A stretch of DNA of 64,000 nucleotides from Takakia lepidozioides (Eukaryota; Plantae; Bryophyta). The stretch is from positions 70,928,001 to 70,992,000 of the forward strand of contig CM060733.1 in assembly GCA_030704615.1 (NCBI GenBank). The letters are read 5' to 3'. This document shows, one piece after another, positions 1,757 through 61,055 of the stretch. Positions within the stretch are counted from its first letter, which is position 1, and the number at the start of each line of letters is the position of its first letter. The notes under the pieces were generated by a model. It was not told the DNA's origin, did no database searches, and worked only from the letters and a program-made list of their open reading frames with translations. The position numbers and the translations under genes are program-made.

Positions 1757-2908
1757 GTGACATTTATTGGGGGTATAGCGGCTGCCCAGCGGGGCAAGAT
1801 GCCAACACTAGCCGCCTTTACAGCTGCAGTTAGTTGGCCTGGAGAGTTGCTGGAAGGCAATGCCCATGCAGAGGATGTGCCACCTCCAGCAGAGCAGGAT
1901 GACATGCATGGTATGGCGGAGTTGCCTGCCATGGTTGCTCACACTCCATTGTGGGGTACGAGCAAGGATTTGCAGCAGGTTGCTGATCGACGGGTACAAC
2001 AAGCCTGGGTAGAGGCTTTTGTTCCGTCAGGAGAGGAGGAGAGTGCGGGTATTGCACCAGGACCACCTCAGTTGTCGCCATTGGACACCACACCTCTTGT
2101 GTGGCAGCGGCCGGATGAAGGCATATGCCTTCTGGACTTGTTTGGCGGGATCAACACTGGATTGGCTGCAGTGCTGCAGGCAGGTGTACGAGTTCGACGT
2201 TACCTGTATGTGGAGAGGGATGAGACTGCACGACGCGTCTCACTGCGCCATGTTGCTCAGATGGTGCAGCAGTACCCTGAGTTGTTGCCGGTGTCTGCAG
2301 TTCGTGGATATCAGCAGGCCTTGCCAGCAGACATTGCGTTGCTGGGGGCGCAGGATTTGGAGCGGGTTGGCTCCATTGATCTGGTAGTGGCAGGTTGGCC
2401 CTGCCAAGGGCATTCATCAGCCGGGCATGGCAATGGATTGCGAGACTCGAGGACGGGTCTGTTTTGGGAGATGGTGCGGATTTTGCGCCACTTGCAGCTT
2501 CATCAGGCTGTATCTCCGGCATACATCTTGGAGAATGTGCCACTGATGGGTGATTCTCGGGCCAGGGTGATGGCCAGTGTGCATCAAGTCCGGTCGTGGC
2601 TTGGGTCAGCAGTGTTGCTGGATGCAGCTGCAGTGGGGTCACGGGCTCATCGTCCACGGCTTTGGTGGACTAATTTGATGCCACCCGCACTGCTCAAGCA
2701 TGCATTTGATGGGGTGCAGCGCCCAGTACACCTCACTGTGGATGGCATTTTGGACACAGGGAGGCAGTCTCAACGTGTGAGACATAATGACCGTTCGCCG
2801 TTGGCAGTGGTCAACAGGATGGGTCACCCACGAGCAGCATTACCTACATTGCTCAGCTTCCCAGGCTCCCATGGCTTTCGAGAACCTTGCCATCGCACAA
2901 CACCGTGA
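1757..2908 (+). CDS. C5 cytosine DNA methyltransferase domain of the retrotransposon polyprotein (motifs I-VIII; C-terminally truncated)
   Basis: Motif I LLDLFGGI (~2129), II YVERD, IV DLVVAGWPCQG with catalytic PC (~2399-2404), V DSRTGLF, VI ILENV (~2531), VII LDAA, VIII AHRPRLWW (~2648). Frame is open throughout. Confidence 0.88.
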   Translation: MTFIGGIAAAQRGKMPTLAAFTAAVSWPGELLEGNAHAEDVPPPAEQDDMHGMAELPAMVAHTPLWGTSKDLQQVADRRVQQAWVEAFVPSGEEESAGIAPGPPQLSPLDTTPLVWQRPDEGICLLDLFGGINTGLAAVLQAGVRVRRYLYVERDETARRVSLRHVAQMVQQYPELLPVSAVRGYQQALPADIALLGAQDLERVGSIDLVVAGWPCQGHSSAGHGNGLRDSRTGLFWEMVRILRHLQLHQAVSPAYILENVPLMGDSRARVMASVHQVRSWLGSAVLLDAAAVGSRAHRPRLWWTNLMPPALLKHAFDGVQRPVHLTVDGILDTGRQSQRVRHNDRSPLAVVNRMGHPRAALPTLLSFPGSHGFREPCHRTTP

Positions 2909-3394
2909 TACGTTGAGGTATGCTACCATACGTGGTGGGGGCTACCGTCCTGGGGTTCGGAGATTCAACCCTGGTGACTATGTCTATTTGCAACAGACTG
3001 CTCCTACGACCTTGGATGTGACTGCAGGACGTGTTATTTTGAGGGTTCGAGAGGTCTTGCCCTCAGGCGTCTTGGTCTTGGAGGGTCGGAATGGCATAAC
3101 ATGGAAGGACCATGTGCGTAATTGTGCGCCATGTCACCTTCCGAATGTCGATGGCAGGATTGACCCAAACCTGGCAGTGGTATCTGCAGGTTGAGGTGCA
3201 TGTTGTGTGGGTCTGCTAGAGGGGCAGCCACCATGCTGGTGTGTGATCGGTGCTCTAGAGGTTGGCATATGGGATGCTTGACGCCACCTCTTGAGAGGGT
3301 TCCGGATGGGGATTGGTTATGTCCACATTGCATGGATAGTGGGAGTGGATACAACCATGCAAGGCTAACAAGAAACGCAAGGCCCAGCTACTAG
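2880..3394 (+). pseudogene. integrase C-terminal (SH3-like) tail followed by a PHD finger; 1-nt frameshift at ~3191
   Basis: ENLAIAQHRD..RY...RRFNPGDYVYL resembles a Gypsy IN tail. CMLC..MLVCDRC.RGWHMGCL.PPL..VPDGDWLCPHC is a canonical C4HC3 PHD. Confidence 0.85.
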
Positions 3395-3597
3395 GAGACC
3401 TGGAACACACGAGATCTTGGCTCAGGTTCACAGATTGCAAGACGGCGACTAACGATGGGGCTATTCTTGTACCCGGCCTCTTGGTCTATAGAGTTTTGAG
3501 TGCCATAGGGACAGTGATAGAGGACTTAGTACGCTGTGGCTATTACATCTTGTAGCTATCTGGAGGAGAGGACCTATCCACCAGCTAGGGGGGTGAT

Positions 3598-4032
3598 TGT
3601 GGTAGACTACTTTATTGTGCATATATGTGTGGTGTGGTTTGGACAGCGATGTAGTTGTGTAGCGATACGTATGCGCACGACAGCTGTCAAGTTAAATAAG
3701 CACAGTGTGAAACTAACTAGAATAAAACTAGTTATTGTATTAACACTTGGATTTGGTTCAAGTGTTAAGTCAGGTGTCAAGTTTGAGCTTGACACCTGAA
3801 CTATCTTATCTTCACGAGAGCGGCAGTCGCGCAGCTCATCTCTCTCGAGTTGAGCCTGCGCGACCGAGCTCCTGCATCGTTTAGGATTGAGAGTGCTTAT
3901 GATGGGAGTGTAGGTTGTTGTGGGGTGGAGTCCCCATAGCTTGGGGTGGCGGTAGACTACTTTATTGTGCATATATGTGTGGTGTGGTTTGGACAGCGAT
4001 GTAGTTGTGTAGCGATACGTATGCGCACGACA
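3598..4032 (+). repeat. 3' LTR-like region with an 82-bp exact direct repeat (3601-3682 = 3951-4032)
   Basis: Starts TG just after the PPT; both repeat copies end in GCACGACA; a diverged third copy of this end lies at ~4964-5009. Confidence 0.65.
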
Positions 4033-4537: not shown

Positions 4538-5215
4538 AAAGTTCCGGCCTAAGACTTTAATTTGCTAGACGATAGAGGAACCAGGGAACCACATGGCATC
4601 ATTAAACCAAGCAGAAGCAAGGAGGACCTGGTTGGCCACCAAGGCCCTTCCCACAATTGAAATGTGAGCTCCAATACTTGAATCTGGCCTTGAGTTTGTT
4701 AATGACAACACCACGCCGTTGTTGATCAGTAAGATCCAAACCTATGAGGTGACCAAGCAAGGTATGGGCCTGGCTAGGTTGAAGCTACCGGAACCCAAAG
4801 TCGTGTCCCAAGGGGGCAGTATGCGACGAGGAGGCTTGCGGGGAGAGCTTCGAAAGAAGGGCCACCGACTTTGGCCAGTTGATTTTGATATGCTCCACCC
4901 TCGATGAAAATGCCATACTCGGACTCGGAAAAAAGTCCAAAACATGAGACCCGCCCAACACTATTTTGGACACTGATATAGTTGTATAGCAATAGGTATG
5001 CGCACGACATCTTTTATGGCCTAACATAAGTATAAATTCTGATGAAAAAGTACATGTCTGTTTAGCTTATTTCATGACCTACAATATTGAATAGTACTGT
5101 GTTTTTGCTTATCTGTTGCGTAGTTGTGTAGTGAAAGTCAATGTATGTGCTTTTGCAAAGCAGTCAATGGGAAGGCCTATACCAGCCTCTGCACATGAAA
5201 TAAGCTAAAAGTAAA

Positions 5216-7272: not shown

Positions 7273-13814
<6,542 letters not shown>

Positions 13815-14501
13815 TGCGCCCCCTGAACTGCTGATTGCACGATACTCGAAACCCAGGCTACTGTAACAATACCTTACAGTGTCTGAGCATGGTGCCTGAT
13901 TGCAACAGCTAAATGTAGCCCAACTTGGCAAAACCACAATCGAAGTCACCTCCAATTACGAGGCAACTTGAAATCTAGGCAGACCCACAAATAAAGTATG
14001 CACTCTGTCTTCCAGCAAATACTTCAAAATCACTTACCCAAAAGAAGGATCACAAATCCCAGGAGACTCTGATGAGCCTCTTAGGGCACACAGAGAGACA
14101 AACGACACAATAGCAAGACGAGAAGAACGTCAGAGGGGCTTATGAAGAATCCGCGTTTTGAAAAACCAAGTGGTCGTGTGTGACTCGGAGACCCAATTGA
14201 TAAGACACACCAAATTCACGACTCAACTTCCAGAAGGAATGGGTTGAATGAGGAGATTGAGGAAAGGAGCCTCTTTCCTGGAGAGGGTGCAAGGCTGTGG
14301 TAAGTAGACCCAGTTTCGCCGAAAAGGGCGATTGATTCTTTCAGAATACTGCAATTTTAGGGCTTCTACCTAGTCCGGGGTTCACAGTTCTTTTCGAGAT
14401 GCAGAACACGGAACCAGGGCTGTTTCAGAGTTAAATTCATCCAGGCTGTTATCTGTACTCACTTCACCTTCACTACTTACTTTCATTGCTCTGTAAATTC
14501 A

Positions 14502-14761: not shown

Positions 14762-15270
14762 TGTGAAGGCCCATTTCCTCCTGGTGACTTATTTTCCTAT
14801 TTCATCCATCCATCTATACTCATTCATCTAGTGTATTTTTTTCGCTTAACCATTAAACCGTTACACTCATAGTTAAGTTAGGGGTTAGTTTATATGCTAG
14901 CTTCGTTTTTGCCGTCCAATCAATCTATGGCCGGAAAGAGGCGCCTCGGGCTCAACCTATTGCGCCTCACCACGTGGCATGCAGCAGGCACCTAGGGTTA
15001 GTGTATAAAGCGGCGGCCTGACTTGTGTCAAACGACCTGGTGTACTCTGGTGAAACGTATGTGTAAAGGTGTGAGAGCTTCATTCGTGTTAAGGAATCCT
15101 GTCAGTTGTAGTGTGAAGCTGCAATATAGTTTTAATTTTACTTGTTGCGGGGATGAAGTGTACACTTGCCCTCTTGTTGGTTTTCTGTTTTCATCGTGGA
15201 GTGCATACTGTCTTTGGAGACAAATACATCTGGTTGTGCGGAAGGACATGGCAGCAGAGGGGATTCGACC
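14762..15270 (+). mobile_element. diverged LTR (14762-15248) plus PBS-like site, related to the LTRs of the dUTPase-bearing Gypsy element
   Basis: Starts TGTGA. Shares CTAGGGTT..GTATAAAG.GGCGGCCTGAC.TTGTGTCA and TGTACTCTGGTG with the reverse complement of 62066-62523. Ends CA, followed by tRNA-complementary-looking TGGCAGCAGAGGGGATTCGA. Confidence 0.6.
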
Positions 15271-15383
15271 GCATCTGTGGCCTATCCTTGTGCAAGGCAG
15301 ACACACGGGCAAACCAAGGACGTACTGCCTCAAGCCTCCTATGTTTTTATTGCAGATGTGATGTATATGTTTTTGCGGAGACT

Positions 15384-18089
15384 GGAGGAGCCAAGCACAC
15401 CGCGGCACTCCTGAAGAATTTCTGGCCCAAACTGAGGGAGGAGGCCGAGGAGTATGTCAAGACATGCACCACATGCCAACAAAACCGGAGCGAGTACAAA
15501 AAGCAAGCGGGGCTGTTACAACCCTTGTCGATTCCAGAGGGGTCTTGGGAAAGTGTCTCGATGGACTTCATGACTGCTATGCCGCTGTCAAAAGGATTCG
15601 ACGCAATCATAGTGGTGGTGGATAGATTTACTAAAATGGGTCATTTCATCCCCACCATGGAGACGGCAACGGCGCAGGAGACGGGGCGACCTTATTTCGC
15701 TCACGTCTTCAAGCATCATGGACTCCCGAAGGATATTGTCTCGGACCGCGATCCAAAGTTTATTAGTAAATTTTAGAGGGTACTTTAGAAGAAAATGGGG
15801 ACGAGGCTCAAAATGAGCACCGCCTTCCGACCTACGACGGACGGCCAAACGGAAAAGGTGAATTCCGTGGTGAAGCAGATCTTGCGGAATTACGTGTCGG
15901 CAGACCAATCGGACTGGGTGGAGTACTTGGATGCGACAAAGTTCTGTTAGAATAACACAAAACATTCCGCAACATGAGTTTCCCCTTTCGTATTGGTCTA
16001 TGGAAAAACACCTTTGGTGCCGACAAGTTGGGCCGCCCAAAACGTTGAGGAACCAGCAGCAGCGGCAGTGCTGGAAGAACGCGAGCGTTTGTTGAAGCTC
16101 ACAAAGTACAACATTGTCAAAGCTAGGAAACGGTATGAACGGCAGGCGAATCGGAAGCGGAGGGAGCTTAAGTTTGAGGTAGGCACAGAGGTCTGGTTGA
16201 ATATCAAAAAAATTCGACTACCTTCGGAAGTGAGTCCGAAGTTTGTACCTCCGTATGCTGGACCCTTTCGCATCCGAAAGGTTATGAATGAGGATGTGTA
16301 TGAATTGGAGCTGCCGGCAAACAGCAAGGTGCATCCGGTATTCCACGTCTCCTTTTTGAAGCCTTACTTCAAAGATGAAGCGCGTCCGAATCGGCCTCAA
16401 GAGTTGCATCCGCCACCTGTGCTGTTGGATCATGAAAAAAAACCTGAGTACGAGGTGGAGGCAGTGCTTAAGTCGAGGAGGTTCAAGAATCGAGAAACGG
16501 AGTATCTCGTGAAATGGAAGGGCTATCATCATGTGGAGGCATCTTGGGTGCGTGCCTCAGAAATGAGAAACGCATCCGAGGCGGTTGCAGCTTTCGAAGG
16601 GCGACCTCAAAAGCGGAAGAAGCGTAGATGGGGACATCAACCTTAGAGCATGAGGGAGGAAATGCATGCTTAGCCCGGCTTAGCTAGCTCAGGAATCCAA
16701 TTGCAAAAACTTGTATTGTACAAATTTTGTTATAAAAGTAATGGTTTCCAAATGTTGTGCGTCCTATTTTGTTTGGAATGGTGATGCATGGTATGGTTAG
16801 CTAGTGTGTAGAATGCATGCTAAGCTTACAAAGTGGGAGAGGTAAATTGGATTAATCGTGTGTTTGTGTAGTGCCGAAATCGGGTGACTCCCACCCAAGG
16901 GGCAAAGAAACTTGCACCTTCGTTGGGAGTTCACGTGCTAGTGCGCATCTGGCGCGTGCGCGCACTATAACTGCGCTACCGAGGGGATTGCCTTGTAGTG
17001 CCGGCTAACGCAGAAGCTACGTGCTTCCGTCACGTACTATAATCGTGTAGCCTCGGGACGAAGTCGTAGTGCGGCTTCGGCGTGTTCCCGTACTTCAGGC
17101 TAGCATTCCAAAGCGGACCCAATTGTAGTGATTGAGGCGCACGGTTGGTTCAAGGTTATCTTCCTAGTCAAAAAAAAGGTTCGAGGTGAACCCTTGCTCA
17201 AGGTGATGCCAAAAACGACATCGCGAGCGGTCGCAAGCAAATGTTGTTGCAGTAAGGCGATTCGATCCTCGGGGAGGATCATTCCTTGGCCCTGAAGTGG
17301 GTCAAGAAGAGTGCACTGGGAGGAGCTTGAGAGGCTCCACCCTTTGCCGGGACTTGAAGGAAGTCGGCCGAACTAGCTAGTGGAGAGAAGAGTCAAGTGG
17401 GGGTTTGGTTCTTAGCCATGGGACGCCATGGTGCGGAAACAAACTCCTTGATGTGGGACGCCACAACTTGGATGTTCATTTCTACAAAATGGACAAGTCG
17501 ATGAGGACATCGACTCCCTGTTGGTAGGGATGTGTGTCGCGGCCCTTTGCCTTGAGGGCAGGGAGTTGGGACGCAGAGGGGTTGCCCCTGTGGTGGGGGC
17601 GGTGACGGCAATAGGTACGGGGGGCTAAAACAACCTCGAGTGCCCAAGGCACTCGAGGAGGCGGACCGTGGTGGGTGGGCCAAGACTCACCGCGACTCAT
17701 CACCGGGAATTGAGGGTTTTCGTGGTGGTTCGCCATAAAATGGTGGTGTTGTTTGTGAAACCCCCGCGGACAGTCACAGGAGTATATATAGGGAGTAGTA
17801 ACCCCGAGAACGGTGCAAGCCCGTTGGTGTCCAAAAACTAGTGAGGAAGCGTGCGAGCCGGAAAGCGACCAAGGTGTGGGGAGCTATGCCGGACTGCCAT
17901 CGACCAAAGGGAATTTCCACTAGGCCCGAATTGGGAGAGGGTCTTGTGGAGGAGTTAAGGGGGACCGTTATGCCCCGGTGAGCAGCCGAAGCTCCGAGTT
18001 GGCCCGGCGGCCAGTTTGGGAGTTAGGCGCACGCATCAAGCGAGTAACTATGACTTGAAGGGGAACTTACCGAAGTGAGGTGCGCGACA
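15384..18089 (+). mobile_element. 5'-truncated chromovirus (Ty3/Gypsy): integrase + chromodomain, long 3' UTR, 3' LTR 17535-18089
   Basis: IN motifs CTTCQQN, SMDF, SDRDPKF, DGQTE with several stops; GPF motif; chromodomain YEVEAVL..EYLVKWKGY..ASW. LTR TGTCGC...GCGACA, same family as 46746-53245, with an internal deletion. Confidence 0.92.
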
Positions 18090-18359
18090 CTATTGCTCCA
18101 GCAAGAGAGTATGAAGATAGGGTAGTGGGATGAGACCATAGGAGTGCTTGCGGTGGATGCATGTGCAGGTACAAGTTTACGTTAGAAACCTAGTATTCTA
18201 AACCGTAAGCTGCAACAGATTCTCTACCCGGTTACCTTGTGGAAATGGGGATTAGAGACAGGTTTACAACCGGCGTGGTTGTGAGTTTTCATCACGGATG
18301 TGCCACCAGTTGCTGAGGGGAGTGCCGGTACGAGCACCAACGATACTAATGGGTACACA

Positions 18360-19458
18360 TGACGAGGTGTGCGGTTTAGGCCACCTTCACCTTCGGTGTC
18401 TTCTGAGGAAAGTTCAGACTTGGAGTCAGGAGGATTCTCGTCGAGGGTGCAATTCATTTCCGTACCATTGTTGTGGGACATGATGGAGGAGATGTATAGA
18501 GATACCAAGGGGCCACGTAGGTACTCTGGAGCTGTGGGCACCATCGAGCTTTATGACTTCATACAAGAGTTTGACAGTTGGTGTGATTTGCAGCAGATAC
18601 GCAATCCACAACTATTTACGCCCTTTGTGGCGTGGAATGGGCTATTACAGCACCTTGAGGGGCCGCCTATGGATGATCACCATGAATTTAGGCGGGGACA
18701 TGTGGTGGAGATTGAGGAGTGGCGACAGTATTGGCCACCTAATTACATCTCCATCACTAGAGGCACAATGGCAGCGAACAGCTACACCGTTAGCTTCTGC
18801 AAGCAGCAGTGGGACGAGCGGTATAGGATCAGCTGGGACTTCCACCTAAGCCCCTGCTGCACCAACACTAGCACCCGTGCCTGCCTTTAACCCAGTTGTG
18901 GAGTTCTTCGAGGAATTGAGGAGGAACTACCAATGAGTGAAGACAGAGAAGTTGCAGAGCTTGCAAGAGTTCCAACGCAACCTACTGAGAGTTTGAGGGA
19001 GGCTTACACTCGCATAAGGCGCTTGATAAGTGTAACCCAAGGGGTTACGGAAGCTCAGGCAGTCCAATTCTGGTATGGGATATAGGATAAGGAGCTGAGG
19101 AGAAGGGCGCGGGATGCAACTCTCCCACAAGTTGCCCAACCCACCCTAGCAAATGTGTTTTTGCTAGCAGAATAGATAGAGCTCAACATGGTGGAGGAGC
19201 GAGTGGTTATAGTGGGATTTGGCAAGGAGACACAACAAAATGGGGCTCCTAGCCAACAACAACCAACTCCCAACGTGTTCAAGGCAACAAAAGGGTTCAG
19301 ACAAAACCCAGGGAAGGTCAGAGAGGATCTCAGATGCAGAGGTCTCTTCCTTTATTCTCAGGCCATGAACAACAGATGAGTGTGTCATGTTGGGATTGTG
19401 GAGGACCACATGTGAAGAAGAATTGCCCAGAGAGAGGCAAAGGGTCGGCACAGACACA
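18360..19458 (+). pseudogene. degenerate gag of the same family as the DNMT/PHD retrotransposon
   Basis: WYGI.DKELRRR.RDATL...QPTLA.VFLLAE.IELNMVEERVV..GFGK and the CWDCGGPHVKKNCPE knuckle match 1-370. Several stops and frameshifts; cut by a CACTA end at 19459. Confidence 0.85.
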
Positions 19459-20190
19459 CACTACAGGAAAAGGGGGGGGGGTTAGTGACGCTGCGGCAAC
19501 AGTGCGGCCATGCCGCGGCGTCACTAAACGCCACTTGTTGGGCAAGGGCGGGGGGGCCTTTTTGCGATGCTCGGGTGTGGCACAACTGTCCCCAGGGCCT
19601 CACTAGTATAACGTCGCATAAATGCGACGGATGGGGGTTGCAAGCCGTTGCCCCCCTCCAGTGACGCCCCGACGTGGCATCTTGGCGATCCAGGGTGCTG
19701 GCAGGGGCTTCCTTCTATCCACGCTCGGCAGTCGCTACCCTCCCGGCGACGGCGTTGGCTAGGGCGACTGCTCGGCGTCGCACCACATTTTTTTCTCTCC
19801 ATGCCCGGGCGTCGCATACTAAAAAAACACCACGTGGTGGAGGGGGGGTGTTAGGCTCAGCCACGTGGTGGCGTCGCGGCTAGCCACCCCCGGGTGTCGC
19901 AAGGGGAAACCCCATCGTAGCTGAAGAGTCACCCACTGCGACGCCGGGGCGTGGGTACTTGCGACGCCCGGGGGTGGCTAGGTGTTTTTTTTTACAAAAA
20001 ACACTGGGAAGGTGTTGCTACTGCGTTGGTGCTAGTGATGCCCGGCCATCGCTGGTTGCGACCCCCACCCGCGGCAAGCCAAAAAAAACCCGTCGCAAGG
20101 GCGCTGGTCCAGGCGACGCCCTGCTGTGGCATTCTGGGTGGGGGCGGGGGGGGGGGGGGGTTGGGGGTTCATTTTGGGGGGTGAATTGGG
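19459..20190. mobile_element. CACTA (En/Spm) terminus with subterminal repeats
   Basis: Begins CACTACAGGAAAA exactly where gag homology stops; dense GCGACG/CGTCGC repeats in both orientations; no partner end found. Confidence 0.7.
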
Positions 20191-23100: not shown

Positions 23101-23430
23101 AAATGTTGGCAGCAGTGTTACGGGGCATGAAGTCACCGCCACGGTTGTGGAATCAGCTGAGAAGGGTTGGCCAGTCCAGCAACCTTAGCCAGTCCATCAT
23201 AATTCTCATTTCCTTGACGTTGTGGTGCGCACACCACTGCGGTGCAGGGATGGTGGCCGGGATCTTCTGATTGCGTGTTGGCATGTAGGGGGGGAGAAGC
23301 CTTTGGGGGCAGTATAAGCGCAGCTCCATGTCACAAAGTAGAGGCAGATATATGGTCTTACCCGTCATGAGCAGGGTATGTCCGAACTTGTTGAGCGTAG
23401 AGGGCCTCAGCCCTATGGGTGCCGCTGCTT
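20190..23430 (-). mobile_element. LINE fragment: degenerate ORF1-like region and APE endonuclease; RT missing
   Basis: ILICRNVGSL, IILLQETKL, GGVAFGI, HLYMP and ILAGNFN motifs at ~20240-20740; A/C-rich coding strand. The upstream boundary is approximate. Confidence 0.7.
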
Positions 23431-24265
23431 CCCCCATCATTTGATCATAGGTCTCCAAGGCCTCCATACCATGTCCCTGCCATGCAAAACCTGCAAGCAT
23501 CGCATTCCACGACACCACATCTCGTTCAGCCATAGTGTCGAACACTCATTTTGCATCCTCGATAAACCCACATTTTGCATACATGTCCACTAGGGTATTG
23601 TTCAGAATGACAATTGGTACAATTCCAGCTCTGAAGATGTCGCCATGGATCTCTTTGCCCTTTTCTAGAGCTGCCAGGGCCGTCTGCAGAATGACATTTG
23701 GTACAACTCCAGCTTTAATGATGTCATCATGCACATATTTGCGCTTTTCTAGGGCTGCCAGGCTTGCACAAGAAACGCAAACAAATGTGATCCGATCTGG
23801 CTTCAACCCTTCCTGCAGCACTTGCTCATAGGTCTCCAAAGCCTCCAGCCCACACCCATGCTGGTCTACACTCCCACATTTGTCATACATGTCAACAACG
23901 GCAGACTTCAGAATAATATCCGCCACAATTCCAGCTTGAATGATGATGTCAGCATGGACCTCTTTGCCCTTCACCAGGGCTGCCAGACTGGCATATGCAT
24001 TGGAATGCAAAGGAAGGTAGCCTTGTCAGGAATCACCCCTTGTCAGATCATCTGCTCATCGATGTTCAGATCAGCCCCCCTCCCAAAGCCATGCTGTTCC
24101 TTAACGTTGTAAACCTTAGTCACATTCTTGATTTCATCAAACACTTGACAAGCATCCTTAAGGCTCCCACAGTTGGAGTACATGTCGGCAGGGGCTGTCT
24201 CCAGCATGATGTCGGCCACAATTTCAGCTCTGATGATGTCAAGATGGACCTGAGTTGCTGCGTGC
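23430..24265 (-). pseudogene. PLS-class pentatricopeptide repeat gene fragment
   Basis: Repeated motifs LVDMYAKCG, RDVVSWNAML, EALETY, GLKPDRITFV, GKEIH; stops and internal deletions. Confidence 0.85.
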
Positions 24266-24929
24266 CTTTGAGGTATGTTTGGCAGGTTCTGCTTAACAGA
24301 GAAGATCAACACGAATTCATGGAGCCATCTGTGGCATAGCAGCTGGGAATCGAAGAATAATGATAGAGCCTTATATGCAATGTGGAATCTATGTAACACG
24401 GGAAGAGAGGGGGGTGTCCGAGGATGGGGAGAGGGGGGAGTGTGCTCCCTAATGCCTGCCCCATAGGTTGCTGTTTCTTCAATTGTCATTGGGATGTCCC
24501 TCTGCAGCTCCCACTTATTGACGAGAGACATACCGAGATGCTGCAATTTGCCCTGCCAGCCAGCATTAAGAAATTTTCCCTGGCAGATTGAGAAGTAGGC
24601 TTTGAAGGTCTCCTGCCACCTATTTGCCTCGCTACGGTAGTCTTCAGCTTCTGCCAGTTGTGGGAAACCACATATGTCTTGAGATAGATGACCAGCTTGC
24701 AAAGTAGGGTAGCTGGAAAATGAATCTCTCATTGACGAATTTGGTTCTGGGAGCAGATTGTAAAGCATAATGGGCTTGGAATACATTGACTGGAGCATCC
24801 TTGAGCTGTGGGATGTTGAACGAGTCAGGTCCAATCAAAATGCTCGTCCATCAGCTGCAGTACGTAGGAGGGTTCCTTGCTGCGAATTGTCGTAAGCAAG
24901 CCCTGCTTCAACGAGGCGATCTCCCTTCA

Positions 24930-25100
24930 TCTCGACCGTAGCACTCCATGAGATCACATTTGTGTGAGCCATATTATCAGACCCTTGATGTGCAGCCTTC
25001 ATACTTCCACACTTTACATACATGTCAGCAAGGGCGGTCTCGAGAATGACATCTTGAGCGATTCCAGCTTTCAGGATGCAGGCATGGACCCCGCTGTTCA
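24930..25100 (-). pseudogene. second PLS-PPR fragment
   Basis: VHACILKAGIAQDVILETALADMYVKCGSMKAA..NVISWSA. Confidence 0.75.
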
Positions 25101-25439: not shown

Positions 25440-26733
25440 TGAGACAGATTGGCAATACTTGGTGTCCAAGGAAGGCCCCGGGATCAACATGCCCTACTAC
25501 ACCCTGTGCACAGCGGAAAAATCTTTTATCCAGGGATGTACCTCAGATCTCTCTCCTCGTGGCTGATCTTCTTCCTGTACCAATTCCCTTAATCTTTCTT
25601 GTAAAGAATAAGGAGTGGCATCCAACTCTAGTTCTTCCGGTATGGGTGATGTACTCTCTGATCTTAATGGTGTGAGAGGTCCAGATGATTCCCCTATGTC
25701 TATTCCTCTCTCCCAAAGATATGGATAATTAGCTTCCAGATAACTTTCTCTTTTTGCTGAATATCTCTGGAGTCTAGCTTCTCTTTCATCACTCATGTCC
25801 TATGTCTTTCATATCTTTAATGAGGCAATAACCAAAACTCTCTCCTGTAGTATCTCTCGTATATGCCCGGATTTCTTTCAAGCTTCAATGCACCCTTGGC
25901 TATACTAGAGGTCTCTGTTACCATATATCCATATGGCAAGCACGTCTGAAAAGCTGTTTCTAGGTGTCAGTTTGATCCACAGGATATCCTTAGGAATCCA
26001 ATTCTTTACCAGTACAAGCTCTTCATGCATATGAGTGCAAACATTCACTTTCCTTTCCTCCCAGCCTTCAAACTCTACTCGCTTAATGGATAGCAATGCT
26101 ATCACATAAACCAGTGTAGGTAACCAACGTGCTCTCCCTCTATAGGCCACCCGATAAATCTTTATCACTCCTTTCTCCAAACCCCACTCAGGGTCAACAT
26201 CAAGCACTCTCTTAAGAATGTTTTCTTTACAACCGTCTAGCAATTCCAAGAACCTCTGAAAGAATTGTTTGGACAATCTTTCCTTCTCCGTTCGACAGGG
26301 AATTTGATTCACATCAAATTCTTTAATTCTCCAACCACCATGATCCCACCAGATGTCTGTCACATCTGGTTGTTCATGACCCAGTTCCCCAATATGGTCG
26401 CCAAATGTCGAGCGGCTTTTACTCACCCATCCCTTCGCTATCCGAGGTGGAAACTCCAAGATAGAAGAGTTGGAAATCTCTAAGCACTCAGCCCGCTCAG
26501 AACAATCAGTTATGACCTACAGTTAGTGAATCATGGTTGTTCTTCCTATTTGTATTTCTTCTTGCCTTCATGTTATCAATTTACCTTACTGTGTATACTG
26601 AAGCATCAGATTGCTTCAGTATCTATCAAGTTACATTTACTTTTCGATTCATTCCACAGCTTCACTCATGTCTCTTTACACAGTATGTTTGTATCGAATA
26701 AGTATCAGATTATGATTTATCAGGTATCAGGCC
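25440..26733 (-). mobile_element. 5' fragment of an LTR retrotransposon: LTR 3' part (26406-26733), PBS and unrecognised ORF(s)
   Basis: 26406-26733 is a reverse-complement homologue of 32068-32392. LTR end ...CGACA is followed by TT-TGGCGACCATATT. ORFs 25905-26400 and 25497-25796 follow. Confidence 0.7.
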
Positions 26734-26756
26734 AAAGACCCTCCATAGCTTCTCGT

Positions 26757-29700
26757 ATGGACGTATTCGACATTTTCGACGATGAAGATGAGTGCATTGA
26801 GGTCCCCATGTCCTCCACACGGTCGTTCAAATCCGACATGGACGTCTCTGCAGGTGCTATGCATGTACTCTCGAGCATAACTCCAACCCGGTCCATTGTG
26901 CAGCTCCTACGACAACATCACCTCGATGGTTCTCGCTCCGAGCTGGCTGCTCTCGACTATGCCAAATTTCCGGTCAGGAAGGTAACGTATCTGCCTCCCG
27001 AAGTCGATGGCAATGTCATCTTCGAGTTTCCACCTGTCACTTCCTCAAACAAAGCCTCAGGGATGTTAACAGACATGGATCGAAAGCATGACAGACACCC
27101 CTGGTGTGTGACGAAGACCAGTAGCACGAAAATTGCTGATGGTGTTCGTGTACGATACGTCCTCTGTGCGGGGAAGCTGAGGTGCCTGAATCCCGCCTGC
27201 TTCCACTTTCTTTCCAAAGGAGGGCGGAGAAACGAGACGGATTGGACTGGCACAACGCATCATCCATTCATTGTCTCCAGCCAAGCTCCTGCGGGTACTT
27301 TCAAGTGCGCACATTGCAAAGAACCACCGACGTGCATGTCCATGTGCAGAGCCAAGCAATATTACGTTATCCATTTGCTCCCGGACTTGACTAGAGCTTG
27401 CATACACGTTGGGGTCCACTGCCACCCCTTGGCGAGAGGCAACATACGTGAGGCTGTGCAGGAAGCACACGACATCATAAAAGAGGAGGTGAAATTGAGC
27501 CCCGGAGCCAGACCAAAGCAGATTCAGCTGAAGGCAGCCCATAAGATTGCTCTTGGAAAAATCATGTCTAAAGATGGTTCAGACCGAGTACCCTTGAACG
27601 AAGAGGAGATGCTTGACCTGTTGGAATCCGTCTCGCACGTTTGTAGTCCGAATGTGCGGAATCACATCGTATCTTGCAAGCAGGAGTTCGGCCGAGGGTC
27701 GGACATGCACTCAATCCTGGAGGTGAAACGAATGACTAGATATGACTACATCCAAGGTAGCAGGTTTCCAGGGCAAGGCAGCGAATCCGATCGTTGTTAC
27801 ATTTTTAAAATGTCGACGTGTGGGTCTGGGAGTGGAGTCGACTTGGTCACTCGCATGACAACTGGAAACCTGTCGAATGTTTGGGTGATGTTTGATCACA
27901 TCGAGCGAATTACAAACCATAAGTGGGTGACTATGGGTGCGCATGTTTATGACTATCACTCCAAGATGCTCATGACGATTGCAATCTGCGAGATGAAAGG
28001 GGAGGACACATAGTTGGAGATGCATCTGTGGGAGGGCATAAACGAGCAGATGGCAAGGGCGGGATTGCCAGAGCCCAATTTCAGGGGATTCATGGCAGAC
28101 AACGCTCAGGCCAACTGGGCAGCGGTGCGGCGTGTGTACGGTGAGGACCCCAATGTGCCAATGGAGGGGAAAGAGAGATCCTGTGGATTCCATTGGATGC
28201 AGAGTCTATCCCACTACACTACCAAATTTGTTGCTAGCTCATTCCAGGCTGAACACCGTGTCCTTTGTACGGCGTGGAAGGATGCACCCACATTTGATGA
28301 CGCAGGTTAAGTTTGCTATCATCGAGGCTTGGTGGAACACGTCAGGTGCAGTGGAGACAACCAATCTGGGAGCCTTGCACAGCTGGTTGGGGTGGTGGCA
28401 TTTCCGGTATCGACAGTTCGGACAGTACATGCGGGAGGTATGATGCTGTCATTTTCGTGCAATTGTCTTTCTATTACGGACCTTTCCATTGGTTCCTCAC
28501 CATTGTCTGTGTCCTTGTAGGAGCGGTGCTTGGATTCCGACACGGACATGCCGAACACGAATATGGCAGAATCAGTGCACTCCTCCTGGCGAGCGTCTTC
28601 TGCCGCACATCTGGTGGACGTAGTGACGGCCACAACAAAGGACATCGACAGAGCAATCATGCAGCAAGCCACGTACTACAAGTTTCCGAGCGGGAAACAA
28701 TGGGGCTTTGGGCCGGACAGGGAGGAATTGTTGGTGCGAACAGCTTTGAGGTCGAAGAATCCACTGAAATGGGCGACAGCATTGCGAGAGAAGATCAAAG
28801 GGACGCCTCTGCACCGCAGAGGTGAGCACCTAGAGGGGGACGTCCGTACTCGCTCTGTGAGGCGGAGGATTAAAGAGGAACCCAGGTGCAAAGAGGCATT
28901 CCTGGAGATCCGACAGGAACATTCGGACAGCACCTCAAGGGCCCGTCATGTTGCCGCACAATGTGTCTTCCAGCAGTGGAAGCCCAAGAAATTCCAAATC
29001 GCCATCGCCTTCAAGCGGGGATTCCGTGCGAGAAATTCCCACCGCTCGCTTGCCCCAGATTCCGCCCCCTGTTATGCAGTATGGCCAAGCCATTGTGGAG
29101 ACGACTGTGTCTGCGTCACAGTGGAGAATTGCTCGCACAAAGCCGTCGTTTCGAGGCAGGTGTTCCTCAATTCGAGTGGATACACGACAACGTTGTTTAG
29201 AGATGATAAGGAGGAATCCAGATGGTGTTGTCCCTGCTCCTACTTTTACAGGAAGATTTGTCCATGCAAAGTTTGCGGAGGCGACAACCACCCAGTTCTG
29301 GTTCTGCAGGCACGACATTATGACTCGCGTGTATGGAAAGCCCAAGTACGGCATACAAACAATGCCAGAGGCTCCCCCGGTGTGGCCGGTGGAACCAGGC
29401 TGCGATCTGAGTCAGGTTGAGGCCGACGCCCTTACCGCCGCAGGATTTCGGATGGTGCAGCGCACTGACGTCCCCAGACAACCATTTTCGCTTCCACAGC
29501 CTCCACCACCGACCCCTGTGAGAGCAAGAACAATGGGACCTGACAGCTCTAAGCATCCTACACACCGTTGGGGGAAACCGAAGAGGCGGCGACCTCCCTC
29601 AAAAGTGAACGAGACAAGGATAGGGAATGCACTTCGGATGAACTGTACAATCCAGAGCTCGACAGAAGTGCCCCCACCAGGCTTCGGGCGTGTGTATCAG

Positions 29701-29952
29701 ATGGCCACGGCAGGCTCAGCTGTTTGCAATGAGGTGTACACCATCACCATTTCAGAATTACCCACCTGCAATTGCACCGACTTTCAGATCATGACGAACA
29801 AGGGGGCATCATACTGCCCTTGCAAGCATCTGTACTACGTGTACCTAAAGAGACTCCGGTGTAATTCCACAACTCATCACTTCATACATGCACCAGGGTT
29901 GAGCCCCCAAGAGGTGCACACTCTTCTGAATATGGATCCAGGGGACCAGTGA
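26757..29952 (+). pseudogene. Mutator-like (MULE) DDE transposase with N-terminal GCM-like zinc domain and C-terminal SWIM finger, about 1030 aa when reconstructed
   Basis: MFDH (~27894), FMADNAQA (~28098), CGFHW (~28182), TNMAESVH (~28569), SWIM CNC..CKH (~29767-29830). Phase-0 GT-AG intron 28438-28520. Lesions: TAG at 28011, frameshifts at ~28305 and ~28880. Confidence 0.8.
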
Positions 29953-30199
29953 CCTTGGCTTGCGGTCCCAACACAATGGTATGCCCATCCTTTTCGGATA
30001 GTAGAACTGTACTGCTGCAAGTAGCTCTGACTCTGGCCACAGAAAGGTCCGACTTATGTCTTGCCTACCAGTAACCTGTTTTGCTCGAACGTCGATAACA
30101 CTATGTCATTCACTCGTGTTTCCACGTGCATGTATTTTTGTGTGTTGGAGGGTTCCTGTTTTTCTGCTCTCCCAAACTTTGCTTTCCTCATTCGACCCC

Positions 30200-32884: not shown

Positions 32885-34420
32885 TGTAAGTTCCTAATTT
32901 GAGTATCTGGGCCATTTGATATACCCTAGAGGATTGGGTGTTCAACAGACCAATGTGGAGGCCATTGCATGCATTCCACGTCCCATGGATGTAAGCAGAG
33001 TTCGTGTTTTCATGGGATTGACAAACTACTACCGACGGTTTGTCAAGGGATTTAGCAGCATAGCAAAGGCTCTTATCAAGTTGACCAAGGTGGGTAAGGA
33101 GTGACAGTGGGAAGAGGAGCAGGAGCAAGCCTTTGAGGAACTCAAGGCTCGATTGACTTCTGCGCCTATTCTAAGGCACCTATTCGGGGGCGGCCTTTCT
33201 AGCTACGTCATATGGATTGGAGTATGCTGGGGATTGGAGCAGTGCTCAAGCATGTGGATGATGAGGGAAGAGAGTTTGTAGTGGCATATGCCAGCCACTC
33301 GAACAATGATGCTGAGGCAAAATATAGCTCATATGAAGGAGAGTATCTAGCTGTAGTATGGGCAGTGACACATTTCATATGCTACCTCTATGACGATCTT
33401 TTCACCCTTCTCACGGATCACCAACCATTGAAGTGGTTGATAGAGTCAGACAAGCTTTACAGGGAAGCTTGCATAGTGGGCACTTATGCTTCAAGAGTAC
33501 GACTTCCAGGTGGTGGATCAAGCCGGTATAGTCAATCGGGATGCAGATGGGTTGAGTTGTAATCCATGCACAAGCAAGCATGATGATACTGGAGCTCGGT
33601 GGCAGGGTGAGACGGATGAGGAGATGGTGCCAGAATGACATGCATCTGCCTTTTTGTGCATTTTAGCAATGAGAGCTCAAGCTGGTCCACCCCATGGGAT
33701 TGGTCATGTAGATAGTGTGCATGACAATCCAGAAGCTTGGTGGTGCTAAGGATGTGCATGAAGATGCAGCAGTGTTGACCTACTTTCGTACCGGAGAGAC
33801 AACAGCCAATGTGACTCATGTTAAGGAGAGAGATCGAATCCTACAACGAGCCAAGAGGTTCAAATGAGAGGGGACTCACCAACTCCGAGTGTGGGAGGAT
33901 GGACGAATGAAGATTGTGCCTCATCCAACACAACGAACGCGATTGGTATGCCATGCCCATGAAGAGTTGGGACATTTGGGGTGCGACGCACTCATAGTTT
34001 GCTGTAAGGACAGTACTGGTGGCTAGGCATGCACACGGATACAGTTAGTGGCAAGGTGTATGGTGTGTGATACGGTACGTACTTCCTTCAATGCACCTAC
34101 TCCACAATTACATCCTTTACCGATTATAGGTTTGGGCTATCGTTGGAATCTTGACTTTGCAGGCCCATTGCCACTAACGATTCGCCATAATAAGTATGTG
34201 CTGGATGATGGTGGAACACTTTTCCAAATGGATTGAATTGGTAGCGTTGCCTGACAAGGCTAGTGAGGGGGCTACGTATGCATTTTTGGATTGTGTTCTT
34301 AGCCGATTTGGTGCTCCAGCCAAGGTACTCACGGACTAGGGGAGAGAGTTCTTGGGAGAGTTTCAGGCTTTGTGTGAGCAAGCCTTGATAGATCACCGCA
34401 CTACTTCTCGAAATCACCGT
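32885..34420 (+). pseudogene. degenerate Gypsy RT(C-terminal)-RNase H-integrase fragment
   Basis: EYLGH, NYYRRFV, DWS..GIGAVL, YSSYEGE, TDHQPL, IN H..LGHF/C..C, LDFAGPLP, TD.G.EF; many stops and frameshifts. Confidence 0.85.
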
Positions 34421-37877: not shown

Positions 37878-39428
37878 ATGTATGCAAAGACCATGGTGAG
37901 CAAGCTTGGGCTTGCTTATGAGAATATCGATGTTTGCCCAAAGGGGTGTGTGTTGTTTAGAGGGAACTTGCAAGGTTCAGAGAGGTGCCTCAAATGTGAA
38001 AGCGCCCGATTCAAAAATGTGGGGAGATCCAAGATATCTGTTAAGGTGCTTCGACATTTTCCATTGATACTGGACGCCTTTTGCGTATGTATAGATGCTC
38101 TTCTATTGCACAATTAATGACCTGGCACAGTCGGTATGCAAGCAACAATGGCCTAGTGCGCCATGCAACTGATTCAAAGGCTTGGAAACACATTGATGCT
38201 ATTTGAAACACATTGATGCTACTTGGCCCGACTTTGCAGCAGAGCCTCGCAATGTAAGGCTTGATTTTTCCTTCGATGGAGTCAACCCGTTTGGTGATAA
38301 GAACAATTGTTGGTCAAGATGGCTAGTGTTGACGCTGGTATACAACCTACCTCCGTGGCTCACTACAAAGAAGTTCTTTGTCATGCTTACTCTCTTGATT
38401 CTAGGAAAGCAGTCAGTTACAAGTGATCACATAGATGTGTACTTAACACCACTGATGGAGGAGTTACTTGTTTTGTGGAGGGGGCTTCGGGCATATGACA
38501 TATGCAAACCTATTGGTGAGAGAACCTTCATACTATGCGCCATACTATTGTGGAGCATCCATGATCTTCCTACTTATGGCCTACTTGTAGGATGTGTCAC
38601 AAAAGGCTACAAAGGGTGTCCAGTATGCGGTCCTCATGTAGATGCAAGACACTCTAAAGCTCTGCGCAAAACTATCTATCTGGGTCACCGCAGGCTCCTC
38701 CCCCAGGCCCATCCATACCGCAGGAACCGCATACACTTCAATGGACAGGTGGAGATGCATGCAAAGCCACCTCCGTTCACACCGGTTGAACAATTGGCCG
38801 CTGCTGTTGAGGCTAGAGGTTATGACCTTGACCCCAGTGCTTTTCCTGATGCTGAAGTTCATCCAACCAAGGTTCATGGTATCAAACGGCAAAGCTGTCT
38901 ATGGGATTTACCATACTGGAAGGTACCCCCCTGCACTTGTACTTGTTTGAGTTCACTGTTCTTTGTAAATGGAAAAGGTAGTGCCCATGTAGTGGTTACT
39001 TCCTACCAAGTGGTAAAATAGCAGTGCATGTAATTTGGACTTCACATTAATAACTGGTGGAGTGGTAAGAGGTAGTATCCATGATGCTTAGAAAGTTGTT
39101 GACATCACTTGAGAGGTTAATAATGCACTAAATGAGTTGTTTGAACCACTGAGGAGGGACTCTCATGCATCACAGCCACTTTAGACATGGATGTATATAA
39201 TGCTCATAAAATAATCTAATTTATATCGGACTGCAATATGTCGGAATGTTCCTGAAATGGTGTCACCAATTGCAATATCTGCTGCAACGCTACTTACTGC
39301 ATCCCATGCATTGCGAAAAGAATTTTTGTGAAAACTTATTGAAGACGATTTTCGGACTGAAGGACACGGTGAAGGTGAAGAACGACATGGAGGTAGTCGA
39401 CATCAGACGTCACTTGTATGTGGAGTAG
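37878..39428 (+). pseudogene. CACTA/En-Spm transposase (TnpD/Tnp2-type) fragment
   Basis: IDVCPKGC..C..C, EPRNVRL...DGVNPF, YNLPPW, DVYL.PL.EEL, WSIHDLP, GCPVC, WDLPYW, MHCEKN. A 20-bp tandem duplication at ~38186-38225 shifts the frame. Confidence 0.92.
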
Positions 39429-44413: not shown

Positions 44414-44876
44414 GGGGGGAATCCCGGAGCAGCAGCAAAAAATCGACGCAGAAACGCCAGAAAGCTCAAAACCACTTTCAGGACCAATTAATCTCAAACA
44501 AAAGACATACAATTCAGGAGGCCAAACTCCCAACACATCTCTGAGAGAGACGAACAGCAGAACAGCGTGTAGTGCTCCAAGATGGAGGAATGTAGAGGCA
44601 GACAACCATCTCGAGATCAGACAGAGAGGAAGGATAATTGCAAGCAAGCCAAGCGCGCAGTGTCTTTATGAAAACTAGTCTTGAGGTTTGCCGGTTTGCA
44701 TCCCTCCCGTCCAAGGGAAACAGCCGGTCGCCCGCCCCTTATGACCGGTAACAGCCAGTCCATTTCCCGCCAAACTTGGAAACCAACATCCAACCCAGAA
44801 TTGTAGTACTTTTTTCTCTCTCTTTTTTTTTTTTTTTTTTTTTTTCTTTCAAGGCCCTAGGTGCACTGTGAAGCCT

Positions 44877-45289
44877 TAAAAGAAGCAGGATGAGTATCTG
44901 CCTATCCTCTCAAATGCTCTTCAAAACAAGGGGGGGTCAACAAGCGAACTGACCGAAAATCATACACATGTATCGCATTCAGACAGCTTTCCACATCTAC
45001 ATACACCATCAGTTGCCTGACACAAGGTCAGGCCGCCACTTTATACAAACCCTAGCTGCATGCCTTCTTGACGCGTGGCGAGGCGTGTCAAGCTGAGCCC
45101 ACGGCGCCACATCAAAACCCTAGATCTATTGAACGGCCATGATGCAGCCACCAGCCATAACTAACCCTGGCTATGATATCTTTGTAACAGTTCAACGGTA
45201 TTTTAAGCCAAAAATTTATACTACGAATGAGTGTCGCCGCTTTGGATGAATAAGGTGAATCTGTGATGAGGAAAGTTTGGGGCATCACA
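44877..45289 (-). repeat. 3' LTR of the dUTPase-bearing element
   Basis: Direct repeat of 62066-62523 with indels; starts TGTGATGCC on the minus strand. Confidence 0.85.
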
Positions 45290-45733
45290 TCTGTGAAGCC
45301 TACCCCCCACGAAAAATCCTGAGCTCCGCGAAGTACAATATAAGAAATAATAAATAAATGTTTGGGAGAAATCATCCACTGCTGGGTGAAAAACCTACCA
45401 AAGGAAAACCTGGCACCTGCAAATTGGGCCGAGGACAAAACTTTTGGCTAGGAAAACCGTGCAGGGAGTACACGTGGTGACATATCATAGGTCTACAAAT
45501 GTATCAAGAGCTAGAACAAAAGGCCAGAAAAGCCGTAAAGTGCCAAATCCGCAAGCTAACACTAATCCGCCGAAGAAGCCAAGCTGAAGAAGATCAAGAC
45601 ATCATCCCACCGTACGTCCCTCCACATTGATGCACGTAAGATCAAAGACCAGCTCGGAATGCACCAGATCCGTGAGAGAAACAGGTTTATTATGCGTGTG
45701 GACATTAAACCCATGTGGAAGAAGGAGAGCACG

Positions 45734-46745
45734 TCACCCACGTAAAAGCTCATAGATCAAGTATGGACCGTCGATCTTAAGCTTAGATTTGCATGCATGC
45801 TTACCATGCTGCAGCTGAATGCACACGGTTTGTCCCACTTGAAAAAGGTTAGAATACTTGACACGCTTGTTAAAATTACGGGCTTGGGTGGGCTGAGCCT
45901 TACCAATGTTTGTCTTGGCATCATGGATGGACACCGCATGCCGAGCATAAAGATCCTCAACAAAGGTCTCAAGATCAACTAGCTCAGCTACAGTAGAAAT
46001 AAGAGGGGTAGAATGCAAAGGAGAAACATACTTGTGACCATACAACAACTCAAAAGGAGTCTTCTTAGTGCTAGCATGCACGGCGGTGCGATAAGCAAAG
46101 AGAATAGGGGGAAGAAAGGTATCCCACTCCCTGGTAAGTGTGCCATTCTTCTCCAACATGCGGCAAAGAGTTTGGTTGAAGCGTTCCGTAAGGCCATTGG
46201 TCTGGGGATGGTATGGGGCTGTGGTGGAATGCTTGACACCAAAGTTGAAGCACACCACCGTGAGGAGCTGGTTACAAAACTCCTTGCCCTGATCCATTAG
46301 TATCTCCCGAGGACACCCATGACGCATAAGGATCTCATTGAAGAAGAACTGAGCTATAACATCACTAGTCTTGGTACGCAAAGGCCTGACTTCTACCCAC
46401 TTAGTCAAGTAGTCGGTAACTACACAAAGATAGCTTCGACCCTTTGATATGAGTGCGAGGGGTCCTACCAAATCAATGCCAACACGAGCAAAAGCATGTG
46501 TAATGGGCAAAGGCTGTAGCTCATACAAGATCCGGGCCCTAGGGAGAGCAATGTTAGCACGACAACCTTCACACTTAGAGATGAACTCCGTGACATCTCG
46601 GTGAATTCCCAGCCAATAGTAAACCTCTTGGATGCGGGCCACGGTCTTCTTGATACCAAGGTGACCTGTATACAAGGAACAATGAAAACGCTCCAATAAA
46701 GCATTCAGCTGGCTCCGTGGTGGCGCCTCCAAATAGCATGGTACT
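45734..46745 (-). pseudogene. integrase of the dUTPase-bearing element
   Basis: H..GHLG..C..C zinc finger, IDLVGPL, MDQGKEF, HPQTNGLTERFN, TPFELLYG, DGPY. Confidence 0.92.
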
Positions 46746-48380: not shown

Positions 48381-49110
48381 TCAACGTTTCTTCCGCTTTT
48401 GAGGTCGCCCTTCAAAAGCTGCAACCGCCTCGGATGCGTTTCCCATTTCTGAGGCACGCACCCAAGATGCCTCCACATGATGATAGCCCTTCCATTTGAC
48501 GAGATACTCCGTTTCTCGGTTCTTGAACCTCCTCGACTTAAGTATTGCCTCCACCTCGTACTCAGGTTCATTTTCATGATCCAACAGCATAGGTGGCGGA
48601 CGCAATACTTGATGCCGATTCGGACGCGCTTCATCTTTGAAGTAAGGCTTCAAAAGGGAGACATGGAATATTGGGTGCACCTTGCTGTTTGCCGGCAGTC
48701 GTAGGTCGGAAGGCGGTGCTCATCTTCAGCCTCGTCCCCATCTTCTTCCAAAGTGCTCTCCAGAATTTACTCGTAAACTTTGGATCGCGGTCCGAGACAA
48801 TATCCTTCGGGACTCCATGATGCTTTAAGACGTGGGCGAAGTAAAGTCGCCCTGTCTCATGCGCCGTTGTCGTCTCCTTGGTGGGGATGAAATGGCCCAT
48901 TTTACTGAACCTATCTACCACCACCATGATTGCATCGAATCCTTTTGACAGCGGCATAGCAGTCATGAAATCCATCGAGACGCTTTCCCAAGTCCCCTCT
49001 GGAATCGGCAAGGGTTGTAACAGCCCCGCTTGCTTTTTGTACTCGCTCCGGTTTTGTTGGCATGTGGTGCATGTCTTGACATACTCCTCTGCCTCCTCCC
49101 TCAGTTTGGG
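48381..49110 (-). pseudogene. chromovirus integrase (internally deleted) and chromodomain
   Basis: SMDF and SDRDPKF are present, but ~473 bp equivalent to 15839-16311 is missing at ~48700. Chromodomain YEVEAIL..EYLVKWKGY is intact. Confidence 0.9.
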
Positions 49111-55410: not shown

Positions 55411-55551
55411 GGGTGCACGAATCAGAGTAGAATTTTTGGGGACAGCTATCCCTGTTCTACCATCAGCACTAGGAACATGCCATTGATATAAGAGTTGCAG
55501 ATCAGGCTGAAGTTTGTAAAAATCATTCCAATTGAGACTGGAGTGAGAGTT

Positions 55552-61040: not shown

Positions 61041-61055
61041 AATATATTGGCAATG

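Follow-up and report, generated by a model that had tools for sequence, protein, structure and literature searches.

A PHD finger at the integrase terminus of a green-plant Gypsy-DNMT3 retrotransposon lineage, a candidate tether to the histone H3 tip, seen in a dead copy from Takakia lepidozioides

The window analysed here, a stretch of 64,000 nucleotides from Takakia lepidozioides (contig CM060733.1), opens within a copy of a green-plant Gypsy-DNMT3 retrotransposon that is dead and has undergone an internal deletion; all its features lie on the forward strand. The 3' part of gag (1–1026), open at the window start and harbouring two CCHC knuckles, was recognised from the open reading frames and by tblastn to residues 197–490 of the Marchantia Gag-PR-DNMT protein P0123. 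It is frameshifted near 860–1050 relative to the following aspartic protease (PR) region (1052–1726), which carries D-S-G at 1409–1417, shares about 50% identity with the PR region of relatives and is interrupted by premature stops at 1568 and 1721. A DNMT3-like C5 cytosine methyltransferase (2117–2884; PF00145, 50.2 bits) displays motifs I, IV (PCQ), VI (ENV) and VIII, ends before motifs IX–X, and is fused at 2868–2884 to the C-terminal tail of an integrase (IN). This internal deletion joint was delimited with the full-length DNMT-RT-RH-IN-PHD protein P0076, residues 1–250 of which correspond to 2123–2884 and residues 1360–1467 to 2868–3191, and with sister copies; missing at this point are about 1,100 codons, covering DNMT motifs IX–X, reverse transcriptase (RT), RNase H (RH) and the integrase core. 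As the two sides of the joint overlap by about 13–16 bases, the deletion was likely microhomology-mediated.

The integrase tail (2868–3191), composed of a long helix and an SH3-like strand domain equivalent to the GPY/F module, was identified by means of relatives, hhalign and a structural model. It aligns with the integrase tails of full-length relatives, its nearest named proteins being those of the liverworts Marchantia and Calypogeia (83–85% over the tail), and in the model of the Marchantia homologue P0001 strands are located at 100–150. A stop at 3192 ends the tail frame, and a C4HC3 PHD finger follows in a different frame at 3197–3331, as seen in a three-frame reading of 2700–3480. Its ligands are spaced C3197-x2-C3206-x11-C3242-x2-C3251-x4-H3266-x2-C3275-x14-C3320-x2-C3329, the core Trp is present, and the window contains a single match to this pattern, compared with none in 20 shuffled windows. 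The Pfam profile PF00628 matches at 46.6 bits (E 3.5e-12, against a cut-off of 24), so that both the description of a canonical C4HC3 finger in the first-pass annotation and the profile check proposed there are borne out; PDB matches and model superposition, given below, agree with this assignment.

Owing to the frameshift between tail and PHD (3188–3194) and to the internal deletion, the window copy cannot make an integrase-PHD protein. In four public runs from two samples of the same organism, sister copies carry DNMT sequence onwards behind 2873/2880 and integrase sequence ahead of 2868, and none of the 25 sister-copy pieces among the matches listed bridges the deletion joint; the length of the tail-PHD joint differs in sister copies in 20, 27, 5 and 3 contigs of the four runs. 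Both breaks therefore belong to the window copy or to a minority of copies. An assembly error is a possible source of the breaks, against which stands the unbroken state present in sister copies. Family read depth drops to the level of the flank past about 4047, and contig depth added up across the family exceeds that of the flank by about four orders, a figure that does not equal copy number. Two further fragments of the lineage are present in the window at 18088–19465 and 32900–34417 (5' gag, and the end of RT with RH and the integrase core, without tail).

The remainder of the window harbours other mobile elements. A chromodomain Gypsy element is present in two copies about 92% alike, at 15117–18091 on the forward and 46746–53245 on the reverse strand, the latter being very young given LTR blocks 99–100% identical. 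A dUTPase-encoding Gypsy element spans 44874–62536, with dUTPase-RT-RH at 53680–55551, integrase at 45734–46756 and LTR-like repeats 89–95% alike, and the chromovirus is nested between its RH and IN. Elsewhere lie a VPS4-like MIT/AAA gene (11000–14000, reverse strand) and PPR-like repeats (23400–25100, reverse strand), recognised by eye, a SWIM-like transposase remnant, also seen by eye and without a Pfam match (26400–30000), and a CACTA Transposase_21 piece (38197–39021).

The integrase of the window chromovirus ends with SH3_Tf2-1 followed by Chromo (47.9 bits, Pfam), which makes the position of the PHD equivalent to that of the chromodomain; the match between its helix and SH3 tail and the tail studied here is weak (hhalign probability 71.5, E 3.6e-5, 107 columns). 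The initial proposal of a PHD finger following the integrase tail in the chromodomain slot thus stands with regard to the slot; it did not mention that the finger is out of frame in this copy.

Downstream of the finger, a polypurine tract (3587–3593), matched by the same G-run ahead of B1 in 14 listed relatives, directly precedes repeat B1 (3596–3682), which ends in GACA and forms with B2 (3946–4032) an 86-bp direct repeat (D10, 99%). Repeat A2 (3685–3945) begins with TGTC; its twin A1 would lie before the window start, as judged from relatives in which A1 and A2 are 87–92% identical. The window therefore holds B-A-B at 3596–4032, the GACA at 4032 marking the element end in agreement with read depth. 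B1 and A2 meet at a palindromic joint, GACA-GC-TGTC (3679–3688), which probably represents joined integrase attachment sites and has a 2-nt spacer in relatives too. A third repeat-B piece (4965–5012, 85% identical, ending in GACA) is perhaps the end of another copy.

Self-comparison of relatives revealed an A-body-B-A-B arrangement in eight loci and A-body-B in others, with TGTC...GACA ends. Exact 4-bp target duplications flank 9 of 13 elements, one more has a single mismatch and three are without, and no target-site motif was found in 32 3'-end flanks. These exact duplications indicate that a DDE integrase inserts the elements of the lineage. DIRS/Ngaro elements integrate by means of a recombinase, with neither a DDE integrase nor a 4-bp duplication, and an assignment to a tyrosine-recombinase element of this kind does not fit the rve core and the same nine duplications.

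Together with the permuted repeats, the 4-bp duplications suggest integration from circles, which are regarded as dead ends in retroviruses. The reverse-transcribed repeat would correspond to B+A, and the linear ends, joined anew, would form a circle; integrase may then open a 2-LTR or 1-LTR circle at the internal palindrome GACA-nn-TGTC, yielding A-body-B-A-B or A-body-B with 4-bp duplications. Retroviral integrases are able to cut such palindromes, according to sections of PMC2884000. The A-body-B copies L001, L004 and L072, with exact 4-bp duplications, may derive from 1-LTR circles or from B-B recombination, and copies of this type can indeed be products of recombination rather than of circles. 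No locus had the mirror arrangement A-B-A-body-B, a form that circles would also permit; the 5' end of L073 bears a remnant resembling B|A, with no upstream B. The B|A joint has a 2-nt spacer in all 14 loci shown of one subfamily (family C), and also in family A. The A|B joint is variable, with four types in 15 family-C loci (7, 6, 1 and 1), which are not clustered on a star-like tree of low power (298 and 500 of 500 shuffles as low). A constant B|A and a variable A|B joint fit the circle model.

The occurrence of the PHD in the lineage was surveyed with a tail-only query, which matched 269 proteins. Among the best 120, PF00628 was present in 100 and the full strict pattern in 78; of the 20 others, 14 have a PHD begun and then broken, 6 end or shift frame before it, and none has another domain in its place. 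The first-pass annotation had named absence of the finger, or a shift out of frame, in family members as evidence against its reading; at the best 80 of 557 metagenome loci, the finger was reached in 76 and is in the frame of the tail in 74 of these 76, in a set that includes several duplicates and is biased towards the PHD because the scan patterns included its motif. Agreement of frame was used as criterion since old copies carry scattered stops, a strict no-stop rule leaving 9 of the 80 loci. A library-wide query extending from RT to the tail, without the PHD, listed 150 representatives, 68 of which have the lineage tail; the PHD comes next in 63 of the 68, with a DNMT in the same protein in 48 of the 63. 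Named hosts are Marchantia, Calypogeia, Sphagnum, Klebsormidium, Coleochaete (a transcriptome-derived protein), Closterium, Volvox, Pleodorina and Chromochloris, and the IN-PHD fusion thus spans liverworts, mosses, charophytes and chlorophytes. Two members, P0144 and P0324, are deposited under cyanobacterial MAG names and are probably mis-binned.

Between subfamilies, dN/dS amounts to 0.21–0.39 for the PHD where not saturated, compared with 0.19–0.20 for the tail. Within families, values are 1.04, 0.51 and 0.33 for the PHD and 0.96, 0.49 and 0.34 for the tail, the ratios near 1 (1.04 and 0.96) being those of family A, which we read as post-insertion decay. The PHD is the normal integrase end of this lineage and is under purifying selection. 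Pfam Chromo was detected in none of the 33 relatives scanned, with the window chromovirus scoring as a positive control; a single-seed chromodomain profile gave no match either, but it had no positive control, and the absence rests on the Pfam scans. A scan of viral contigs returned only one weak, unrelated PHD-only locus.

In an RT-RH tree of 62 rows (quick LG+G4 search, one chromovirus row, two of 20 chosen other-Gypsy rows dropped as they gave no long RT match), all 39 IN-PHD rows fall on one side of a branch with SH-aLRT 94, whatever the position of their DNMT. On its other side stand the window chromovirus and the dUTPase Gypsy, along with 18 further Gypsy rows and three proteins whose PHD sits between RH and IN. 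A reading of the element as a chromovirus with a swapped reader is therefore weakened, at the resolution of a tree with a single chromovirus. Outside the IN-PHD clade, P0293 is a Gypsy polyprotein with Dam, RT, RH, PHD and IN.

The methyltransferase is of the DNMT3 type, the 29 best PDB matches of the intact domain of relative L019 being DNMT3A/B/C. It occurs in two domain orders, namely, Gag-PR-DNMT-RT-RH-IN-PHD and RT-RH-DNMT-IN-PHD, the latter forming an RT subclade (SH-aLRT 100). Algal-type polyproteins have the DNMT next to IN and PHD within a single chain, an arrangement that leaves coupling possible there. Families A and B and L019 share a conserved in-frame stop 62–73 codons before RT, mostly TAG followed by CAA/CAG, at which many DNMT proteins end; it is borne by L004, L005, L010, L013, L019, L021, L025, L035 and L045, and is absent in family C. 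In several land-plant subfamilies, Gag-PR-DNMT is in this way divided from RT-RH-IN-PHD. UAG-CAR is a readthrough motif, and the context of the stop points to programmed readthrough. As the DNMT varies in position and is separated by the stop, while the PHD always ends IN, the finger travels with the integrase and not with the DNMT. A complex prediction for the DNMT domain and the PHD scored 0.25 against a mark of 0.34, a value that speaks neither for nor against their contact. In P0085, P0091–P0093 and related long-tailed algal-type proteins, a Tudor-like stretch noticed by eye, with matches to a purpose-built profile, follows the PHD, and the end of P0085 resembles an adenine methyltransferase (motifs by eye, no Pfam match); a toolkit of DNMT, PHD, Tudor and methyltransferase is possible in this algal type.

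The best PDB matches of the finger, among the 60 listed, are readers of the H3 N-terminus, including CHD4, PHF21A, PHF12, KDM5B-PHD1, ATXR5, DPF, ORC1B, BAZ2 and UHRF1, and the ADD domains of DNMT3 or ATRX are not among these 60. The P0001 model has a pLDDT of about 80–87 over the finger, with an overall pTM of only 0.35; its PHD superposes on solved PHDs at 0.7–1.9 Å, and on the ATXR5-PHD-H3 complex at 1.2 Å over 50 columns. In PHDs of the BPTF/ING type, which read H3K4me3, a Trp of the aromatic cage precedes the His by two residues. At this site, placed by alignment from the BPTF/ING spacing, Gly is found in 74 of 76 short-tailed and 14 of 19 long-tailed PHDs, and Trp in none.

In KDM5B-PHD1, as reported in passages of PMC4225485, H3A1 is held by L325, P347, G349 and W351, R2 by D328, K4 by D308 and T3 by E321, and losses at D308 and E321 lower the affinity about 6- and 12-fold, respectively. 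The UHRF1-PHD, as described in parts of PMC3214078, depends on R2 and tolerates K4 methylation. Of the 76 short-tailed PHDs, 74 have Asp at the D328 site, all have L/I/V at the L325 site, 71 have Pro at the P347 site and 63 have Gly at the G349 site; the residue at the W351 site was preset in the search pattern. Asp/Glu occupies the D308 site in 5 and an acidic residue the E321 site in 1 of the 76, and the window copy is without the K4me0-binding Asp before Cys1. Since these acids, costly to lose in KDM5B, are mostly gone, the affinity for H3 may be low. The 19 long-tailed algal-type PHDs are more acidic, with D/E before Cys1 in 15 and two to four loop acids in all 19. Judged by its residues, the finger keeps the H3 A1/R2 pocket and would bind the H3 tip with weak discrimination at H3K4. 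With KDM5B-PHD1, UHRF1-PHD and ATXR5-PHD it has in common an A1 pocket and an R2-binding Asp with no aromatic cage; it differs in having neither the Asp with which KDM5B/BHC80 bind K4 nor the additional zinc finger and second Asp of UHRF1, as far as these are described in the consulted sections of PMC4225485 and PMC3214078.

We can propose, with a probability of roughly 0.6, that the PHD of working copies tethers integrase to nucleosomes through the H3 tip (Ala1-Arg2) at insertion. By binding the free tip, the finger would hold integrase on nucleosomes as new copies insert, and its weak H3K4 discrimination would make for chromatin tethering with, at most, a mild bias away from K4me3- or R2-methylated promoters. 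The earlier idea that the PHD targets integration is thus strengthened as a prediction by the shared frame, the conservation and the constant integrase-terminal position of a finger that keeps its H3 A1/R2 residues. In the subfamilies with the internal stop, DNMT would be made with Gag-PR, and RT-RH-IN-PHD through occasional readthrough; as the stop places the DNMT with Gag-PR there, it likely acts independently of the PHD, most probably methylating the element's own cDNA in the particle.

The second role suggested at the outset, a coupling of integration with methylation, loses ground, as the finger is an ordinary C4HC3 with the K4me0 Asp mostly lost and the DNMT is mobile or separated by a stop. 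The PHD would here act like the ADD of DNMT3, reading unmethylated H3K4 and guiding or activating the element's DNMT at the insertion site. The ADD domain of DNMT3 and ATRX consists of a GATA-like finger and an all-Cys PHD-like finger adjoining the catalytic domain, whereas the present finger has a His ligand, none of the 60 PDB matches listed is an ADD, and the PHD never moves with the DNMT, lies far from it and is divided from it by the conserved stop in families A and B and L019. The yeast assay summarised in PMC5890265, in which the KnitGypsy DNMT gave no methylation, points the same way, although its authors deem it inconclusive. Even with both domains together in 48 of the 63 PHD-tailed representatives, with RH-DNMT-IN-PHD in one chain in the subclade with SH-aLRT 100, and with the acidic residues kept by the long-tailed algal-type PHDs (15/19 and 19/19), we consider this coupling quite improbable.

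A role outside histone binding, be it nuclear retention of the preintegration complex, contact with a host remodeller or handling of the circular palindromic donor, appears unlikely, if less so than the ADD-like one. It would account for the loss of K4-reading residues in the subfamily of the window copy, and the PHD and permuted A-B-A-B ends occur together in the three of three subfamilies with ends read, an association that is not independent evidence because these belong to one clade with shared ancestry; the conserved surface, however, is the H3 A1/R2 pocket and not another face. That the finger is a passive hitch-hiker or a chance fusion without function would agree with a dead window copy and a dN/dS of about 1 within family A. 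This view is largely refuted by the retention of the PHD from chlorophytes to liverworts and mosses, by near-invariant ligands and by dN/dS well below 1 between subfamilies, and hardly any weight is left to it. Returning to the H3-tip tether, its combination with the other results depicts an unnamed Gypsy clade spread across green plants, with an IN-terminal PHD docking on H3 tips, its own DNMT3 carried into land plants and integration from circles; as a joint reading, this is tentative, at somewhat less than even odds.

Of the targeting modules that plant LTR elements encode themselves, the chromodomain is the best known. If true, a PHD fixed in its place in chlorophytes, charophytes and bryophytes alike would be a second, independent targeting solution, and the circles, likewise if true, a natural integration substrate. 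In Marchantia, copies of the lineage are annotated as genes, and the targeting idea is testable there. Some bryophyte 'DNMT' and 'PHD' gene models are likely transposon parts, and the same holds for P0144 and P0324. DNMT-encoding retrotransposons persist in land plants, here in bryophytes; a review describes them, in the section concerned, as absent from 'land plants, such as tracheophytes' (PMC6338049).

With regard to known systems, both the occurrence of PHDs in Gypsy elements and the idea of targeting have been published, and the family is partly, if thinly, described. According to passages of PMC6673714, PHDs with a possible part in directing integration are encoded by many retrotransposons, and the novelty claimed at first is overrated, as a PHD has already been reported in the polyprotein of an intergenically biased Gypsy element. 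This element, Gypsy-7a_cRei of Chlamydomonas, shows a 2.6-fold intergenic excess for which targeting was proposed; its legend lists RT, RH, PHD and INT, and it differs from the window lineage by the lack of a DNMT and by ordinary LTRs (sections of 10.1101/2022.06.16.496473). PHD, Marchantia and Klebsormidium do not occur in the REXdb survey, and in the literature searched, where most subscription papers, Repbase and theses were beyond reach and several sources were partial texts, no description was found of an integrase-terminal PHD in Gypsy-DNMT3, or of the family in bryophytes.

The closest counterpart is KnitGypsy-Dnmt3 (de Mendoza et al. 2018, PMC5890265), whose polyprotein joins a DNMT3-like domain to those of Gypsy and whose repeats are of the DIRS-like A-body-B-A-B type. 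The lineage matches it by this domain and these repeats, the comparison being made by description and by a partial K. nitens IN-PHD protein (KFL_005000010, P0109; 56% identical over the tail). In the text and three supplementary files of PMC5890265 the word PHD is absent, but Fig. 4c may draw one. In the accessible text K. nitens is the only host reported, whereas the lineage extends here to liverworts, Sphagnum, Coleochaete, Closterium and chlorophytes. That text also makes no mention of target duplications, of the stop between DNMT and RT or of a second domain order, all three of which are found here.

Ginger1 transposases share an integrase of Gypsy type bearing GPY/F, to which one family adds a PHD at the C-terminus, but they belong to DNA transposons with TIRs found in animals, and their PHD stands alongside Ulp1 (parts of PMC2836005). 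EpiLTRs likewise unite a reader and a DNA methyltransferase in one LTR element, in their case a chromodomain with DAM and a DNMT4-like enzyme, and are set apart from Gypsy-DNMT3 by their authors (sections of 10.64898/2026.05.21.726589). Among chromoviruses, targeting by the chromodomain is documented for MAGGY (as cited in passages of PMC3350952 and PMC6673714). Chromoviruses and the window lineage both carry a chromatin reader about 20–30 residues past the integrase SH3-like module; the window lineage differs in having a PHD instead of a chromodomain, an RT branch separate from the one chromovirus compared, and permuted repeats.
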